A DNA stretch of 64,000 nt, taken from an uncultured cyanobacterium (GTDB taxonomy: Bacteria; Cyanobacteriota; Cyanobacteriia; Cyanobacteriales; CAWCAG01). The stretch covers positions 512,001 through 576,000 of the forward strand of contig CAWDOD010000011.1 of NCBI GenBank assembly GCA_963803805.1, in the 5' to 3' direction. Shown here one piece after another: positions 2,249 to 8,539 of this stretch. A program made the translations under genes and the position numbers. Below the pieces are notes generated by a model. The model worked only from the letters and a program-made list of their open reading frames with translations. It did no database searches and had not been told where the DNA came from. The number at the start of each line of letters is the position of its first letter. The stretch's first letter is position 1.

Positions 2249-3004
2249 ATGAATTTTCCGGTTTATTTACAGCTTGGTACTTGGCAAATTCATCCTCATC
2301 CTATCTTTGAATTATTGGGTTATGTAGTTGCTTTCCGCTTATTATTGAGACGTAATTTGCGTCGAGGAGATACTATTTCTTTTAGTCAACGTAGTTCTGT
2401 CGTTGTGGGGGGAATGTTAGGTGCTTTATTGGGAGCAAAGTTATTAGTTTTAATACAACATATTTATTTAATAGAACAAAGCTGGGCAAAATTACTATTA
2501 TTATTGGTACAAGGAAAAACTATTGTTGGTGCATTGCTCGGAGGATTGATTGGGGTTGAGTTAACTAAAAAGATCATAGGTGTAAAACGTTCAACAGGAG
2601 ATGTTTTTGTTTATCCTTTAATTGTTGGTATGGCTATTGGTAGGATTGGTTGCTTTTTAACAGGATTAAGCGATCGCACCTATGGTATAGCCACAAGTTT
2701 ACCTTGGGGAGTTGATTTTGGCGACGGTATTCTTCGACATCCTACACAAATTTATGAAATCATTTTTCTAATTGCCTTGCTGATTAGTTTGAGAATTTGC
2801 CAAAAGTATTTAACAGTTGAGGGGGATTTGTTTAAGTGGTTTATGACAATTTATTTAAGCTTCCGTTTCTTAATTGATTTCCTCAAACCAGATTTTCATC
2901 TCCTATTAGGTTTAAGTGCAGTTCAAATAGCTTGTTTAGCAGGATTAATTTATTATCTAATTAAGCAACTTTCTTCGCAAAAAGCTGAAGAAAAAAACTA
3001 TTGA
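2249..3004 (+). CDS. Prolipoprotein diacylglyceryl transferase (Lgt)-family membrane protein, divergent
   Basis: Multi-TM protein with GRIGCFLTG, LPWGVDFGDG, RHPTQIYE and RFLIDFLK motifs typical of the Lgt family. Confidence 0.85.
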   Translation: MNFPVYLQLGTWQIHPHPIFELLGYVVAFRLLLRRNLRRGDTISFSQRSSVVVGGMLGALLGAKLLVLIQHIYLIEQSWAKLLLLLVQGKTIVGALLGGLIGVELTKKIIGVKRSTGDVFVYPLIVGMAIGRIGCFLTGLSDRTYGIATSLPWGVDFGDGILRHPTQIYEIIFLIALLISLRICQKYLTVEGDLFKWFMTIYLSFRFLIDFLKPDFHLLLGLSAVQIACLAGLIYYLIKQLSSQKAEEKNY

Positions 3005-3093
3005 TAATAGAGAGATAGCCAATCTAAAACTCGGCTTCTCGAAAATACTTGGAAAATGGGCTACCTTTACAAATTATAATTGATAACTGAAAA

Positions 3094-4503
3094 ATGCCTA
3101 CTCGTAACTACCTATTCCATTCCTTAACCAATAGTGTTTGTTCCCAATGTTTAACCAAAGTTGAAGCAAAGATTATTTTCCGCAACGATAAAGTTTATTT
3201 ACTTAAAAACTGCCTCCATCATGGTAGAGAAGAAGTTTTAATAGCTGATGATGTTGAGTATTACAAAAAATCCCTAGAATTCATTAAACCAGGAGACTTA
3301 CCTCTCAAGTTTAATACTCCAATTAAATATGGTTGTCCTTATGATTGTGGTTTGTGTCCTGATCATGAACAACATAGTTGTTTGACGTTAATTGAAATTA
3401 GCGATCGCTGTAATCTTTCTTGTCCTATTTGTTATGCCGATTCTGGTCAAGCAGAATTTTCTTCTCTTTCTCAACAGAGGAGAAAACATCGTAGTTTAAC
3501 TGAAATAAATCGGATGTTGGAAGTAATTGTAGCTAACGAAGGAGAACCACAAGTTGTCCAACTTAGTGGCGGTGAACCAACTATTCATCCTGAATTTTTC
3601 GCCATTATGGATTTGGTTAAAACTAAACCCATTCAACATTTAATGATTAATACCAATGGCATAAAAATTGCTCAAGATCGAGAATTTTGCCAGAGATTGA
3701 GTCAATATATGCCGGGGATTGAAATTTATTTACAGTTTGATAGCTTTGAATCAGAATCCTTAAAAGAGTTACGGGGAGTAGATTTAAGAACTATTCGAGA
3801 ACAAGCGATCGCCCACCTTAATGAGTTTAATATTTCCACTAATTTAGTTGTTACTTTGAAAAAAGGACTTAACGACAAAGAAATAGGTAAAATTATTGAA
3901 TATGCGGTAGGGCAAAAAGCAGTACGTGGAGTCACATTTCAACCTATTCAAGCAGCAGGAAGATTAGAAGGATTTGCTCCAGCCAAAGATAGATACACCC
4001 TAACAGAAGTTAGGCGTTCAATTCTAGAGCAAAGTAACTATTTCAAACCAGAAGATATTTTACCTATTCCTTGCCATCCAGACTGTCTAGCAATGGCCTA
4101 TGGCTTAAAAGTAAAGGGTGAGATTATACCTCTAACAAGTTTGTTGCAACCCCAAGAATATGTTGACATTGCCCCGAATAGCATCCTTTATGAACAAGAC
4201 GAAGATTTAAAAAAGAAAATCTTCGACCTATTTTCCACTCGCCATTCTCCTCAATCTGCCACCACTTCCTTAAAACAATTACTTTGTTGTTTACCAATGC
4301 TTCCTGTTCCCCAAGGTATCACCTACGAAAATATTTTTCGTATTACTATTGTCCAATTTCTAGACCGTTATAACTTTGATGTTCGTTCGGTAAAACGCTC
4401 TTGCATTCACATAGTTCATCCTGATGGGAGGATTATTCCTTTTGATACTTTTAATATGTTTTATCGCCCCGGTATTAAAATAGAGAACAGAACAATAAGT
4501 TAA
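3094..4503 (+). CDS. Radical SAM protein of the MJ0619/Tes (GDGT-MAS)-like family
   Basis: N-terminal CSQC...CLHH, GCPYDCGLCPDH, radical SAM motif CNLSCPIC, SGGEPT, NTNG, YLQFD, FQP; C-terminal CCLP and SCIH...DGRIIPF. Confidence 0.85.
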   Translation: MPTRNYLFHSLTNSVCSQCLTKVEAKIIFRNDKVYLLKNCLHHGREEVLIADDVEYYKKSLEFIKPGDLPLKFNTPIKYGCPYDCGLCPDHEQHSCLTLIEISDRCNLSCPICYADSGQAEFSSLSQQRRKHRSLTEINRMLEVIVANEGEPQVVQLSGGEPTIHPEFFAIMDLVKTKPIQHLMINTNGIKIAQDREFCQRLSQYMPGIEIYLQFDSFESESLKELRGVDLRTIREQAIAHLNEFNISTNLVVTLKKGLNDKEIGKIIEYAVGQKAVRGVTFQPIQAAGRLEGFAPAKDRYTLTEVRRSILEQSNYFKPEDILPIPCHPDCLAMAYGLKVKGEIIPLTSLLQPQEYVDIAPNSILYEQDEDLKKKIFDLFSTRHSPQSATTSLKQLLCCLPMLPVPQGITYENIFRITIVQFLDRYNFDVRSVKRSCIHIVHPDGRIIPFDTFNMFYRPGIKIENRTIS

Positions 4504-4542
4504 AGAGAGTGTTTTAATCTTTGGTATCTCAAATCAAACATT

Positions 4543-4857
4543 ATGTCTCAAAATAATGAAAGCTTCAAAATATTCCTCGGCGTTGTTATTTTATTTGCCT
4601 TTCATATTGCTGCTATTGTTGCTTATTGTCTGATTGCTTTATTGCTAAATACTGGTTTATATGATTCTAGTGTTGCTATCTTTGCCTTTCTAATTTTTGG
4701 TATTGGCATATCCCAAATTATATATGTAATCCCAATAGTAATAATTTTAAGATCCCGTAGAGAGTTTGCTTTAATGAAAGGAGTAATTATTGGTGCTGTC
4801 ATTACCGCCCTCTTAAACGGTGGTTGCTGGTTATTATTGACTCTCCCCTCTACATAA
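4543..4857 (+). CDS. Small three-TM membrane protein
   Basis: 104 aa with three hydrophobic segments; starts 39 bp after the radical SAM gene; ends LLNGGCW. Confidence 0.75.
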   Translation: MSQNNESFKIFLGVVILFAFHIAAIVAYCLIALLLNTGLYDSSVAIFAFLIFGIGISQIIYVIPIVIILRSRREFALMKGVIIGAVITALLNGGCWLLLTLPST

Positions 4858-5051: not shown

Positions 5052-5984
5052 ATGAAACTATACCAAAACCCCTCTCAATGGCAAGTAGCAACAATCCTTT
5101 GTATTGGCGTATTTGCTATTTCCACAGCCGCCATCTTTATTCGTTTAGCCATCGAAACTGCTCAAATAAAAGGAATCGGTTTTAGCCTTTTTATTGCCGC
5201 TTCTCGCCTCACCTTAGCTTCTTTAGTCCTTATTCCCACTATCCCTTTTTTAGAGCAAAAAACCATTCCCAAAAAGGGATTTTATTATGCCACTGCTGCG
5301 GGAATTTGCTTGGCTTTACACTTTGCTACTTGGATTACTTCTCTCTCCTTTACCTCCATAGCAGCCTCCACAACCTTAGTAACCACAAATCCGATTTGGG
5401 TAGCCTTATTTTCTTGGCTTTGGTATCAAGTCAAACCCCACAAATTAACCATAATTGGTATTGGCATCGCTTTACTAGGAAGCCTGATTATTGTCGGTGG
5501 TGATACTGGGGAAACAGAGGTTAGTACAAATCCTTTATTAGGTAACTTCCTGGCTTTAATAGGGGCTTGGATGGCTAGTCTTTACTTACTTTTAGCCCGT
5601 GAAGCCCAAAACGAAAGTTTTAGCACTGGAAGTTATGTAACCATCGTTTATAGTACAGCCGCAGTAGTACTTTTGCCTTTGCCTTTACTATTCGGAATAA
5701 GCTACTTTGGTTATCCGAGCGACGTGTATCTCTACATTTTACTAATGGCTATATTATCCCAGGTAGTAGGTCACACTAGCTTGAATTGGGCAGTACGCTG
5801 GCTTTCTCCTACCTTAGTAACCTTAGCAATTCTCCTCGAACCCATCGGCTCAAGTTTAATGGGATTTGCTATTTTTGGTGAAATTCCTCATAATCTAGTC
5901 CTGTTAGGGGCTGGAGTCGTACTAATGGGTGTGGCTTTAGCCATTTTTGGTGTCACAGAAGAAGAGCAAAAAAATTATCCTTAA
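5052..5984 (+). CDS. DMT/EamA family transporter
   Basis: About 10 TM segments; LALHFATWITSL, GHTSLNWA and EPIG motifs. Confidence 0.9.
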   Translation: MKLYQNPSQWQVATILCIGVFAISTAAIFIRLAIETAQIKGIGFSLFIAASRLTLASLVLIPTIPFLEQKTIPKKGFYYATAAGICLALHFATWITSLSFTSIAASTTLVTTNPIWVALFSWLWYQVKPHKLTIIGIGIALLGSLIIVGGDTGETEVSTNPLLGNFLALIGAWMASLYLLLAREAQNESFSTGSYVTIVYSTAAVVLLPLPLLFGISYFGYPSDVYLYILLMAILSQVVGHTSLNWAVRWLSPTLVTLAILLEPIGSSLMGFAIFGEIPHNLVLLGAGVVLMGVALAIFGVTEEEQKNYP

Positions 5985-6055
5985 CTAGAAGAATTTGGTT
6001 AAAGTCCCACATCGGGTAATAATTAAAAAGATTGGTTGGTAAAAGGAATCATTGC

Positions 6056-6985
6056 ATGGTAACGACGGACGGACGACCTGCCCCCCCAAAAACGCCCTCA
6101 GTCTTTGATGTTAAGGGTTATTTACAAGAGCAAAAGCAGATTGTTAATCAAGCTTTAGACTGCTCTGTTCCCGTGACTGAGCCGATAAAAATTTATGAAG
6201 CAATGCGCTATTCCCTGTTAGCCGGGGGGAAGCGCCTGCGTCCTATTCTTTGTCTGGCAACTTGTAACATGATGGGAGGGACATCAGAAATGGCCATGCC
6301 CACTGCTTGCGCCTTAGAAATGATCCATACCATGTCCTTAATCCACGATGATCTTCCTGCCATGGATGACGACGATTATCGCCGGGGTAAGTTGACAAAT
6401 CACAAAGTTTATGGTGAAGATATCGCTATTTTAGCAGGGGACGGCTTACTATCCTATGCTTTTGAATATATTGCTACTCAAACTAAAGGTGTAGAAGCAT
6501 CCCAACTTCTCCAAGTCGTTGCTCATTTAGCCCGTGCTGTGGGTGCAGGGGGTTTAGTTGGTGGGCAAGTTATTGATTTAGAGTCAGAAGGAAAGTCAGA
6601 TATTTCCTTAGATACTCTCAACTATATTCATACCCATAAAACAGGTGCTTTATTAGAAGCTTGTGTAATTTGCGGAGCTACTTTAGCGAAGGCATCTTCC
6701 CAAGATACACAAAGACTTTCTAACTACGCTCGTAATATTGGCTTAGCATTTCAGATTATTGATGATATCTTAGACATCACAGCAACTAAAGAGGAACTAG
6801 GCAAAACTGCTGGCAAGGATCTTCAAGCTCAAAAAGCAACTTATCCTAGCTTGTGGGGATTAGAAGAGTCGAGGAAACAAGCCCAAAAATTGGTAGATAA
6901 GGCTATTGCCCAATTAGAACCCTATGGGAAAAAAGCTTTACCTTTACAAGCGATCGCTCAATTTATTACTGCTCGTAAAAACTAA
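6056..6985 (+). CDS. crtE: Geranylgeranyl diphosphate synthase
   Basis: GGKRLRP, first DDxxxxD motif ([11 protein letters not shown]), [22 protein letters not shown] at 6056 preferred over the upstream TTG. Confidence 0.93.
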
Positions 6986-7552: not shown

Positions 7553-8539
7553 ATGAGATTCATTAGTCCTAAAACCGACTTTGCCTTCAAGAAAATATTT
7601 AGCTCCGATGGGAGTCAAGATATTCTCATCTCTTTCCTCAATGCCACCATCTACTCTGGGGATTCTGTCATTGAAGACTTGAAAATTATTGACCCTTATA
7701 ACCCTAGTGACACAGTTGATTTAAAAGATAGCTATCTTGATGTTAAAGCAGTATTGAAAGATGGCACAAGCGTTATTATTGAGATGCAGGTCTGGAATGT
7801 AGAGGCTTTTAAAAAACGAGTAGTTTATAACCTTTGCAAAACTTACGGTAATCAACTTAAATCAGGACAAGGATATTCTGACCTTAGTCCAGTTATTGCT
7901 TTAACTATCACTGACTTTACTTTATTTTCCTTAAGCCAAAAAGTAATTACTCGTTTCTATTTCCAAGAAGAAGAAGAAAAAATTGCTTATCAAGAGGGAG
8001 AGTTAAAACTAGTATTTATAGAATTGCCTAAGTTTGACAAAAAACTAGAAAATTTAGAAAGCGTTACAGATAAATGGATTTATTTTATTAAAGAAGCACC
8101 AAATTTAGAAGTGATTCCAGAAAAAATGGGGGAAATACCCCAGATTAAAAAAGCCTTGAACATAGCAAATCAAGCGAGCTTAAGCGGAGAAGAATTAGAG
8201 AAGTTACATAAACAGGAAATGTTTATTGCTGACCGTCAGGGGGCTATGAGTTTAGCGAAAAAACAAGGTCGAGAAGAAGGTCGAGAAGAAGGCAGAGAAG
8301 AGGGCAGAGAAGAGGGCAGAGAAGAGGGCAGAGAAGAAGGCAGAGAAGAAGGTTTACTTGAGGGAGAAAGAAACCTATTACTACGACAAATTCAACATCG
8401 TTTTGGAGAATTATCCCCAGAGGTAATCGCTTCTTTTGAAGCACTAGATGCTCAAGGATTAGGGAATTTAGGAGAAGCAATCTGGGAGTTTAGAACTAAT
8501 AATGATTTAGTTCAATGGTTGCAAAACTACTCTCTCTAA
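7553..8539 (+). CDS. Rpn family PD-(D/E)XK nuclease with C-terminal DUF4351-like tail
   Basis: ISPKTDFAFKKIF, LDVKA, IIEMQV, FIELPKF, DKWIYF, and seven GREE repeats. Confidence 0.9.
   Translation: MRFISPKTDFAFKKIFSSDGSQDILISFLNATIYSGDSVIEDLKIIDPYNPSDTVDLKDSYLDVKAVLKDGTSVIIEMQVWNVEAFKKRVVYNLCKTYGNQLKSGQGYSDLSPVIALTITDFTLFSLSQKVITRFYFQEEEEKIAYQEGELKLVFIELPKFDKKLENLESVTDKWIYFIKEAPNLEVIPEKMGEIPQIKKALNIANQASLSGEELEKLHKQEMFIADRQGAMSLAKKQGREEGREEGREEGREEGREEGREEGREEGLLEGERNLLLRQIQHRFGELSPEVIASFEALDAQGLGNLGEAIWEFRTNNDLVQWLQNYSL
8267..8350 (+). repeat. Seven tandem 12-bp repeats encoding GREE
   Basis: GG(T/C)(C/A)GAGAAGA(A/G) x7. Confidence 0.9.

Follow-up and report, generated by a model that had tools for sequence, protein, structure and literature searches.

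A conserved bacterial gene cassette pairing an Lgt paralog with a Tes-like radical SAM enzyme and a cysteine-bearing miniprotein: a candidate protein-lipidation system

Background

The prolipoprotein diacylglyceryl transferase Lgt is seen as one housekeeping enzyme that serves all lipoproteins. Here we describe a cassette of three genes in which an Lgt-family paralog is encoded next to an enzyme of the radical S-adenosylmethionine (SAM) type resembling Tes, the glycerol dialkyl glycerol tetraether (GDGT) macrocyclic archaeol synthase (GDGT-MAS), and next to a small membrane protein with a conserved cysteine. It was found in a stretch of 64,000 nucleotides from an uncultured cyanobacterium (GenBank assembly GCA_963803805.1, contig CAWDOD010000011.1, positions 512,001 to 576,000), called the window below. 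Comparison of sequences suggests that the cassette probably makes an undescribed lipid-modified membrane protein.

Publications are cited throughout from excerpts of their text. The active site of Lgt faces the periplasm (PMC4728403). Among the residues of the Escherichia coli enzyme, H103 of the HGGL motif is proposed as the binding site of the lipobox peptide, and H103, N146 and Y26 are reported as required for activity or for binding of phosphatidylglycerol (PG) (PMC4728403). The lipobox of canonical substrates follows the pattern [LVI][ASTVI][GAS]C (PMC12462473).

In GDGT-MAS, the rubredoxin-like iron is bound by C9X2C12X20C33X2H36 and the N-terminal cluster by C73, C77 and C80 plus a histidine, while the C-terminal cluster, [4Fe-4S]C, has three cysteines and one methionine, the labile ligand Met439 (PMC9433317). 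Bacterial homologs of Tes have been proposed, without experimental test, as candidates for the synthesis of branched GDGTs (brGDGTs) (PMC8941075, PMC13459092, PMC11868695). An Lgt partner is not mentioned in the excerpted literature on these homologs. A full-text literature search gave no match for the combination of Lgt, radical SAM and lipobox and turned up no account of the cassette, its scope not extending to the supplementary tables in which bacterial Tes homologs are listed (PMC8941075, PMC11868695); the cassette appears to be undescribed so far.

Organization and distribution of the cassette

The three genes, like all features given below, lie on the forward strand. The Lgt paralog (ORF1, 2249..3004, 251 amino acids) is a membrane transferase of the seven-transmembrane type. 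It is followed by the Tes/GDGT-MAS-like radical SAM gene (ORF2, 3094..4503, 469 amino acids) and by the gene of a three-helix membrane miniprotein, the proposed acceptor (ORF3, 4543..4857, 104 amino acids). A previous sequence-only reading of the window had pointed out these three co-oriented genes, their intergenic gaps of 89 and 39 nucleotides and a series of motifs, all of which are present and could be mapped to their codons. ORF1 reaches the Pfam gathering score of the LGT family (97.8 bits, cut-off 24.9), ORF2 matches Zn_ribbon_HMPTM (60.0 bits) and Radical_SAM (71.5 bits), and ORF3 has no family match in Pfam or NCBIfam. The grouping of the three genes is far beyond chance, because their order recurs in other genomes and because the first two are found fused.

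The phylum was sampled with 401 genomes, in which the Lgt paralog was counted genome-wide at E <= 1e-25. The radical SAM gene is matched in 27 of them, 26 with orthologs at 55-80% identity and one with distant paralogs only. An Lgt paralog lies within 1.5 kb of the radical SAM gene in 22 of these 26 genomes, including two weak Lgt-family matches of 24-26% identity. The Lgt paralog is present in 25 of the 401 genomes and both genes occur together in 24. The two weak matches come from one genus of a non-photosynthetic class (genomes G028 and G118), where a much more divergent Lgt-family gene and two small open reading frames (ORFs) precede the radical SAM gene. One of the small ORFs resembles a classical short lipoprotein (...VVWFASTAC...), and G028 also carries a 49%-identical Lgt paralog on another contig. 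Genome G242 has the Lgt paralog without a full radical SAM gene. This decayed cassette (C3:3572000-3584000, locus positions 5152-6548) retains an intact Lgt paralog of 68% identity, followed by a 191-residue ABC-permease fragment and then by a radical SAM remnant of 24 residues (58% identity, E 3e-5).

Outside this sample, a scan of named genomes identified 80 loci with radical SAM orthologs at 55-79% identity under 11 phylum labels (Bacteroidota 30, Bacillota 14, Acidobacteriota 11, Cyanobacteriota 6, Planctomycetota 5, Pseudomonadota 4, and others). Of these 80 loci, 72 have the Lgt paralog, always on the same strand and in 56 cases at most 200 nucleotides upstream of the radical SAM gene. 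Four of the eight loci lacking it are near a contig end, with 26 to 309 nucleotides of upstream sequence; the other four show no match in 6 kb of upstream sequence. Conservation of the linkage in other genomes, on which the sequence-only reading had made its proposal depend, is thus borne out by the named loci, by co-occurrence in 24 of the 26 genomes with orthologs and by the fusions. The cassette is not special to cyanobacteria. The same reading had considered an oxygen-sensitive enzyme in an oxygenic phototroph as notable, a view that the wider distribution does not sustain: members of Bacillota, Bacteroidota, Acidobacteriota, Planctomycetota and other phyla have the cassette as well, among them genera considered aerobic, so that an oxygenic host is not in itself remarkable.

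Three individual replicons or contigs deserve mention. A radical SAM ortholog (58.5%) is carried by a 163-kb plasmid of Chondrinema litorale (NZ_CP111057.1, 55173-56519), where it adjoins a gene annotated as 'prolipoprotein diacylglyceryl transferase family protein', and another (54.1%) by a 1.07-Mb replicon of Persicobacter (NZ_AP025293.1, 930244-931590). Such plasmid-borne orthologs could help to account for the patchy distribution. A contig of a metagenome-assembled genome labelled Actinomycetota (JBLNEP010000039.1) encodes a radical SAM protein of 78% identity and an Lgt paralog of 65%, both at the cyanobacterial level, together with a miniprotein typical of cyanobacteria; the contig is probably of cyanobacterial origin and mis-binned.

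Gene fusions and phylogeny

A family search with the radical SAM protein gave 4993 matches at E <= 0.001. Seven of the best 150 representatives exceed 540 amino acids and were scanned with Pfam; two of these (P0123 and P0252) are fusions of LGT, Zn-ribbon and radical SAM domains. All three domains are also present in 55 of the 120 listed relatives of P0123, the named ones belonging to Tepidisphaerales/Tepidisphaeraceae and to Verrucomicrobiota. The fusions are thus found in Planctomycetota and Verrucomicrobiota, with the radical SAM part placed after the C-terminus of the Lgt domain. This end of E. coli Lgt is cytoplasmic. The fusions also exhibit an invariant or near-invariant Cys-Cys pair at the Lgt/Zn-ribbon junction (alignment A4; positions 246-247 of fusion P0280) that is absent from the unfused protein of the window.

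A FastTree phylogeny of the radical SAM family was built on 97 rows: the window protein, 30 of the 80 named loci, picked so as to cover many phyla, 64 of 81 full-length representatives (the 17 with partial or split matches being left out) and two further fusions. The tree is midpoint-rooted and contains no true Tes, the relation to Tes resting on hidden Markov model cut-offs and on a match in the Protein Data Bank. Orthologs encoded next to an Lgt paralog group in a single clade (33 rows, support 98) that neighbours three fusions (support 99), inside a clade of 40 rows (support 100). The rows of the TrsS class, 10 representatives that reach the TrsS cut-off, form a separate clade (support 99). 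Judged from these sequences, the linkage of the Lgt paralog and the radical SAM enzyme is strongly conserved across bacterial phyla.

The Lgt paralog

ORF1 stays below both NCBIfam Lgt equivalog cut-offs (TIGR00544, 51.8 bits versus 118.9; NF000778, 65.7 versus 334). A canonical Lgt is encoded on another contig of the same genome and scores 275.8 bits on PF01790, versus 97.4 for ORF1; the two proteins share 31% identity over 125 amino acids. ORF1 is therefore classified, from its sequence, as a specialised Lgt paralog and not as the housekeeping copy.

Residues were surveyed in 78 members of the paralog family (71 unfused proteins, i.e. the window and 70 named loci, and the N-terminal parts of seven fusions), aligned with E. 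coli Lgt and with the canonical Lgt of the genome. In E. coli numbering, the donor and catalytic residues are kept: R143 in 77 of 78, R239 and Y235 in all 78, and E202 in 76, the other two having Asp. The E243 position is occupied by E or D and the R246 position by K or R, and the signature glycines are kept. R132, Y202 and R206 of the window protein correspond to R143, Y235 and R239. In contrast, H103 is replaced by V, M, L or I throughout the family, N146 is a cysteine in 77 of 78 members and Y26 a histidine in 68. The window protein accordingly has Cys135 at the N146 position, His17 at the Y26 position and an HGGL motif without its histidine, whereas the canonical Lgt of the genome retains Y26, H103 and N146. 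Cys135 (codon TGC, 2651..2653) lies in the signature GR[IV]GCF and is invariant in alignment A2. With the R143/R239/Y235 network kept and H103, N146 and Y26 changed, the enzyme seems to have preserved its lipid-donor side and altered its acceptor side. One possibility is that Cys135, beside the catalytic arginine, forms a covalent lipid-enzyme intermediate.

The radical SAM enzyme

ORF2 comprises a rubredoxin-like Zn-ribbon, an N-terminal auxiliary cluster region, a radical SAM core and a C-terminal cysteine-bearing domain. The rubredoxin-like site C16-X2-C19-X20-C40-X2-H43 (3139..3222) has a spacing identical to that of GDGT-MAS. It is followed by C81PYDC85GLC88PDH91, the candidate ligands of the N-terminal [4Fe-4S] cluster, and by C106NLSC110PIC113, the radical SAM cluster motif (together 3334..3432). 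These first three metal sites are conserved and spaced as in GDGT-MAS. The C-terminal segment includes S436-C437-I-H and DGRIIPF, and C327, C399 and C437 (4072..4404) are candidate ligands of a C-terminal auxiliary cluster, as their conservation suggests. In an alignment of 16 sequences from several phyla (A1), C16, C19, C40, C81, C88, C106, C110, C113 and C327 are invariant, and C85, H91, C399 and C437 are conserved at 90% or more. A fourth, C-terminal metal site is therefore plausible.

By sequence, the sole solved relative of ORF2 is GDGT-MAS (7tol/7tom). The match to the 7tol chain (E 1.5e-61) covers two stretches, residues 10-327 and 410-461, leaving residues 328-409 unaligned. An AlphaFold model built on the 16-row alignment (predicted local distance difference test, pLDDT, 79.3; predicted template modelling score, pTM, 0.85) is matched by Foldseek over its whole length to 7tom and 7tol (template modelling scores, TM, of 0.79 and 0.78; about 505 columns; 28-29% identity). 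The next match, MoaA (TM 0.36), is restricted to the radical SAM core, as are weaker matches including the peptide maturases SkfB and SuiB (TM 0.36-0.38). The model thus predicts the full four-domain Tes/GDGT-MAS fold, and the MJ0619/Tes layout recognized by the sequence-only reading agrees with sequence, metal-site spacing and predicted fold.

Membership of the Tes family, which that reading had set as a test of its proposal, is not supported: on NF045702 (Tes) ORF2 scores 275.4 bits, below the cut-off of 450. None of the 81 full-length family representatives scanned reaches 450 on this model. TrsS (NF045646) is the best-scoring curated model, with 309.7 bits, below its cut-off of 490. On these scores ORF2 is assigned to neither of the two curated families.

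The cysteine miniprotein

A small membrane protein is the sole recurrent neighbour besides the two enzymes. The last helix of ORF3 follows a K/R-rich loop, RSRREFALMK, and ends with ...ALLNGGC95WLLLTLPST. Cys95 (codon TGC, 4825..4827), the proposed lipidation site, is the only invariant column among 23 homologs from three phyla (alignment A3), which are encoded 3' of the radical SAM gene in Cyanobacteriota, Bacillota and Planctomycetota. The small proteins vary by phylum, and nearly all have a K/R-rich loop, then an uncharged helix and finally a cysteine preceded by two small or aliphatic residues. The motif forms the last helix in most phyla, with the cysteine 3-12 residues from the C-terminus: ...ALLNGGCW... 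in cyanobacteria, ...LLNAACFG... in Bacillota, ...IGFSTC... in Mucilaginibacter, ...SLGICG... in flavobacteria and ...LFAACFG... in Gammaproteobacteria. In Acidobacteriota it is located in the first helix of small ORFs lying between both enzyme genes. The non-photosynthetic classes of the cyanobacterial phylum carry it too.

The motif was surveyed in 81 loci. A strict test (C-terminal motif, ORFs of 35-170 amino acids) identifies an ORF beside the module in 52 of the 81 loci, versus 29 of 5228 other ORFs of the same loci. A position-free motif together with at least two hydrophobic helices is found in 59 of the 81, versus a background of 9 of 4253 ORFs, or 9 of 72 when the background is limited to small ORFs with at least two helices. 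A few near hits are clearly spurious. At least two such ORFs are present in 16 of the 81 loci, a multiplicity often seen in substrates. In one tandem pair, from a cyanobacterial metagenome-assembled genome, the first copy keeps the cysteine and the second (L061, 7866-8168) has a tyrosine in its place (...LLNGGYW...).

The layout of the motif resembles a lipoprotein signal peptide with its lipobox. ORF3 does not carry a canonical N-terminal signal peptide with lipobox, its L-N-G-G-C95 motif being placed in the last of its three helices and 9 residues before the C-terminus. A complex prediction for the Lgt paralog and the miniprotein (alignments A2 and A3) gives 0.56 (runs 0.56, 0.58 and 0.54), versus 0.00 for the best of three controls, with runs agreeing in at least 86% of contacts and a partner pLDDT of at least 73. 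The mark is reached by 116 of 157 solved complexes and by 2 of 215 mismatched pairs, and scores no higher than 0.60 account for just 18 of these solved complexes and for both of the mismatched pairs; the prediction is rated 'weak support'. We take the modelled complex as no more than a hint.

Proposed function and alternative explanations

In the proposed scheme, the Lgt paralog would bind PG through the retained donor-site network and would move the diacylglyceryl group onto the thiol of Cys95. Three features argue for this lipidation step, which we regard as moderately supported: the donor residues are retained, the acceptor site is remodelled, and the invariant cysteine has a context like that of a signal peptide. 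Loss of the HGGL histidine and the new cysteine beside the catalytic arginine would fit a non-canonical target outside the range of the housekeeping Lgt. Cys95 would be positioned toward the outer leaflet, on the side of the Lgt active site, since the K/R loop should be cytoplasmic by the positive-inside rule. The cytoplasmic radical SAM enzyme would then abstract a hydrogen from the acyl-chain end of the Cys95-borne lipid, or of its PG precursor, and would form a C-C bond with the aid of its C-terminal auxiliary cluster, as Tes does. The product would be a macrocyclic or cross-linked lipid anchor. For this coupling step, which we infer, the pointers are confined to the fold, the metal sites and the fusion.

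We give about an even chance to the proposal that the three genes form one cassette, a dedicated protein-lipidation and lipid-tailoring system. Its most specific form, a protein-borne, tail-coupled lipid in which diacylglyceryl is placed on an outer-leaflet cysteine and then C-C joined by the Tes-like enzyme, is a good deal more speculative and, in our view, unlikely. The bond would connect either the two chains of the lipid itself, making it macrocyclic, or one chain and an inner-leaflet lipid, making a membrane-spanning anchor that pins the protein. The sequence-only reading had left two options, namely that the unit modifies or cross-links lipid chains, or that it lipidates the 104-residue protein and then modifies it. 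The second fits the comparative data best, because the GGCW cysteine is the only invariant residue and its lipobox-like context recurs across phyla. Nothing here points to membrane-spanning bulk lipids in cyanobacteria, and the cassette is probably not a tetraether pathway.

Other explanations have to be set against this scheme. The cassette might act on free lipids, with the Lgt paralog as a PG-holding scaffold, the radical SAM enzyme coupling the tails of bulk phospholipids and the small protein as an accessory subunit. The Tes fold with all four metal sites (the fourth being only plausible), the conserved PG-binding residues, the suggestion of bacterial Tes homologs as brGDGT candidates (PMC8941075, PMC11868695) and the loci with no small cysteine-bearing ORF beside the module would all agree with it. 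It leaves unaccounted for, however, the signal-peptide-like context of the sole invariant cysteine, the tandem copies of the small ORFs and the specific loss of the acceptor-side HGGL histidine while the donor side is kept, and the radical SAM enzyme is under the Tes cut-off. Moreover, membrane-spanning lipids are not known from many of the host genera. We regard such a free-lipid role as unlikely. Slightly less probable still is a pathway like that of ribosomally synthesised, post-translationally modified peptides (RiPPs), where the radical SAM enzyme would modify the miniprotein itself, for example on the conserved cysteine or close to it, with lipidation by the Lgt paralog coming before or after. 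That the ORF beside the radical SAM enzyme is small, evolves fast and is often duplicated agrees with the logic of RiPP pathways, and SkfB and SuiB are among the weaker fold matches. Those matches are limited to the radical SAM core, whereas the whole-length match is to GDGT-MAS and not to SPASM/twitch maturases, and the positive-inside rule would place the cysteine near the outer membrane face, away from the cytoplasmic enzyme.

It is very improbable that these are housekeeping genes, i.e. a normal lgt beside a pterin methyltransferase, even though several homologs bear the name '7,8-dihydro-6-hydroxymethylpterin dimethyltransferase' at JGI. The genome has its canonical Lgt elsewhere with a far higher score, the paralog is far under all Lgt equivalog cut-offs and lacks Y26, H103 and N146, the radical SAM gene is matched in only 27 of the 401 genomes of the phylum, and the pterin annotation of MJ0619 has been judged incorrect (PMC9433317).

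Several observations weigh against lipidation and tailoring of the miniprotein by the two enzymes. Two genomes have the radical SAM gene without a detected Lgt paralog, G118 (66% complete) and G004 (95% complete), and three genomes carry both genes unlinked. In 22 of the 81 loci the motif rules detect no such small ORF beside the module, some being near misses. The motif departs from the canonical lipobox, having N at -3 in ORF3 and, in other phyla, I, L or T at -1, so that its lipidation is a matter of inference. The labile Met439 of GDGT-MAS aligns with V420 of ORF2, and the chemistry may differ. The compartments do not match either, the Lgt active site being periplasmic while the radical SAM domain must be cytoplasmic, which leaves its access to outer-leaflet chains unexplained. 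Finally, the predicted fold of the natural fusion P0280 (55 rows; pLDDT 81.7, pTM 0.63) has a disordered linker (residues 247-262 under 50) and no defined docking of the Lgt and radical SAM domains.

Implications

A specialised Lgt paralog with a private substrate and an attached radical enzyme would, if true, be a new branch of protein lipidation. A tail-coupled protein lipid would define a protein-lipidation class of its own and would give the large bacterial radiation of 'Tes homologs' its first function; in that case, many of the Tes homologs recorded in environmental surveys would be something other than brGDGT synthases. Genome and metagenome studies currently include such homologs among the potential sources of brGDGT palaeoclimate biomarkers (PMC8941075, PMC11868695). 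The Lgt-linked clade, with its Planctomycetota fusions and Acidobacteriota members, probably does something other than brGDGT synthesis, and counts of brGDGT potential may therefore be overstated. With only three genes the cassette is compact and it occurs in culturable bacteria, which makes it directly testable.

Other features of the window

Downstream (3') of the cassette are found an EamA transporter, the geranylgeranyl diphosphate synthase CrtE, whose 561 bits exceed the cut-off, and a DUF212 protein. These genes and the histidine kinase on the 5' side are not conserved beside the module at 20 other loci of the phylum, and an isoprenoid link was rejected. Promoter-like sites (15 versus 12.1 expected) and terminator-like sites (2 versus 2.2) are near expectation, and the scan is uninformative.

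The sensor histidine kinase (1-2026) is apparently split. An ORF ending at 1266 stops within the ATPase domain (...GLGLTISRKFIQLMGGGYSSSE) and the next one, from 1268, carries on with ...GKGSNFQFTIKV, followed by a segment that, by eye, is like a response-regulator receiver. The break points to a pseudogene, a frameshift or an error in the sequence. Further downstream, an ORF of 328 amino acids (7553-8539) contains seven tandem GREE/EGRE repeats (REEGREEGREEG...).

Comparison with known systems

Tes/GDGT-MAS (MJ0619; 7TOL, 7TOM; NF045702) is the closest relative of ORF2 in architecture. Both have four domains, the radical SAM motif, a cysteine-bearing C-terminal domain, the same spacing of the CX2C...CX2H and CX3CX2C...H sites and a fold that matches over the whole length (TM 0.79). 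However, ORF2 is bacterial, shares only 28-29% identity, remains below the family cut-off and has a valine for Met439. It is also partnered with an Lgt paralog and a cysteine miniprotein, partners not described for Tes in the excerpted accounts, and the hosts of the cassette make ester-linked fatty-acid lipids and not archaeol.

The chemistry proposed here is analogous to that of Mss of Thermotoga and Thermoanaerobacter, a radical SAM enzyme for tail-to-tail coupling of fatty acyl chains (PMC13159169, PMC13459092), a likeness drawn from its published description. According to the same excerpts, Mss is distinct from Tes, of which its authors found no homolog in those organisms; it is so far restricted to anaerobes, and no Lgt partner is mentioned.

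With Lgt (E. coli; 5AZB/5AZC; PF01790, TIGR00544), ORF1 shares the Pfam family, the R143/Y235/R239/E202/E243/R246(K) network and the signature glycines. It differs in being a second copy in its genome, under the equivalog cut-offs, with H103, N146 and Y26 replaced family-wide. Whereas the housekeeping enzyme acts on the N-terminal signal peptides of many lipoproteins, the presumed target of ORF1 is a single small protein encoded next to it, whose non-canonical lipobox is internal or C-terminal.

TrsS (NF045646) belongs to the same superfamily as ORF2, has the same domain order and provides its best curated model score. It nevertheless forms a separate clade, and ORF2 is below its cut-off and has no selenocysteine codon. 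Two TrsS-class proteins are fused to other partners, an N-terminal SAM methyltransferase of the DVU_1556 family and a C-terminal DUF5714 (P0267 and P0254). The accessory domains with which this superfamily is paired thus differ from clade to clade.

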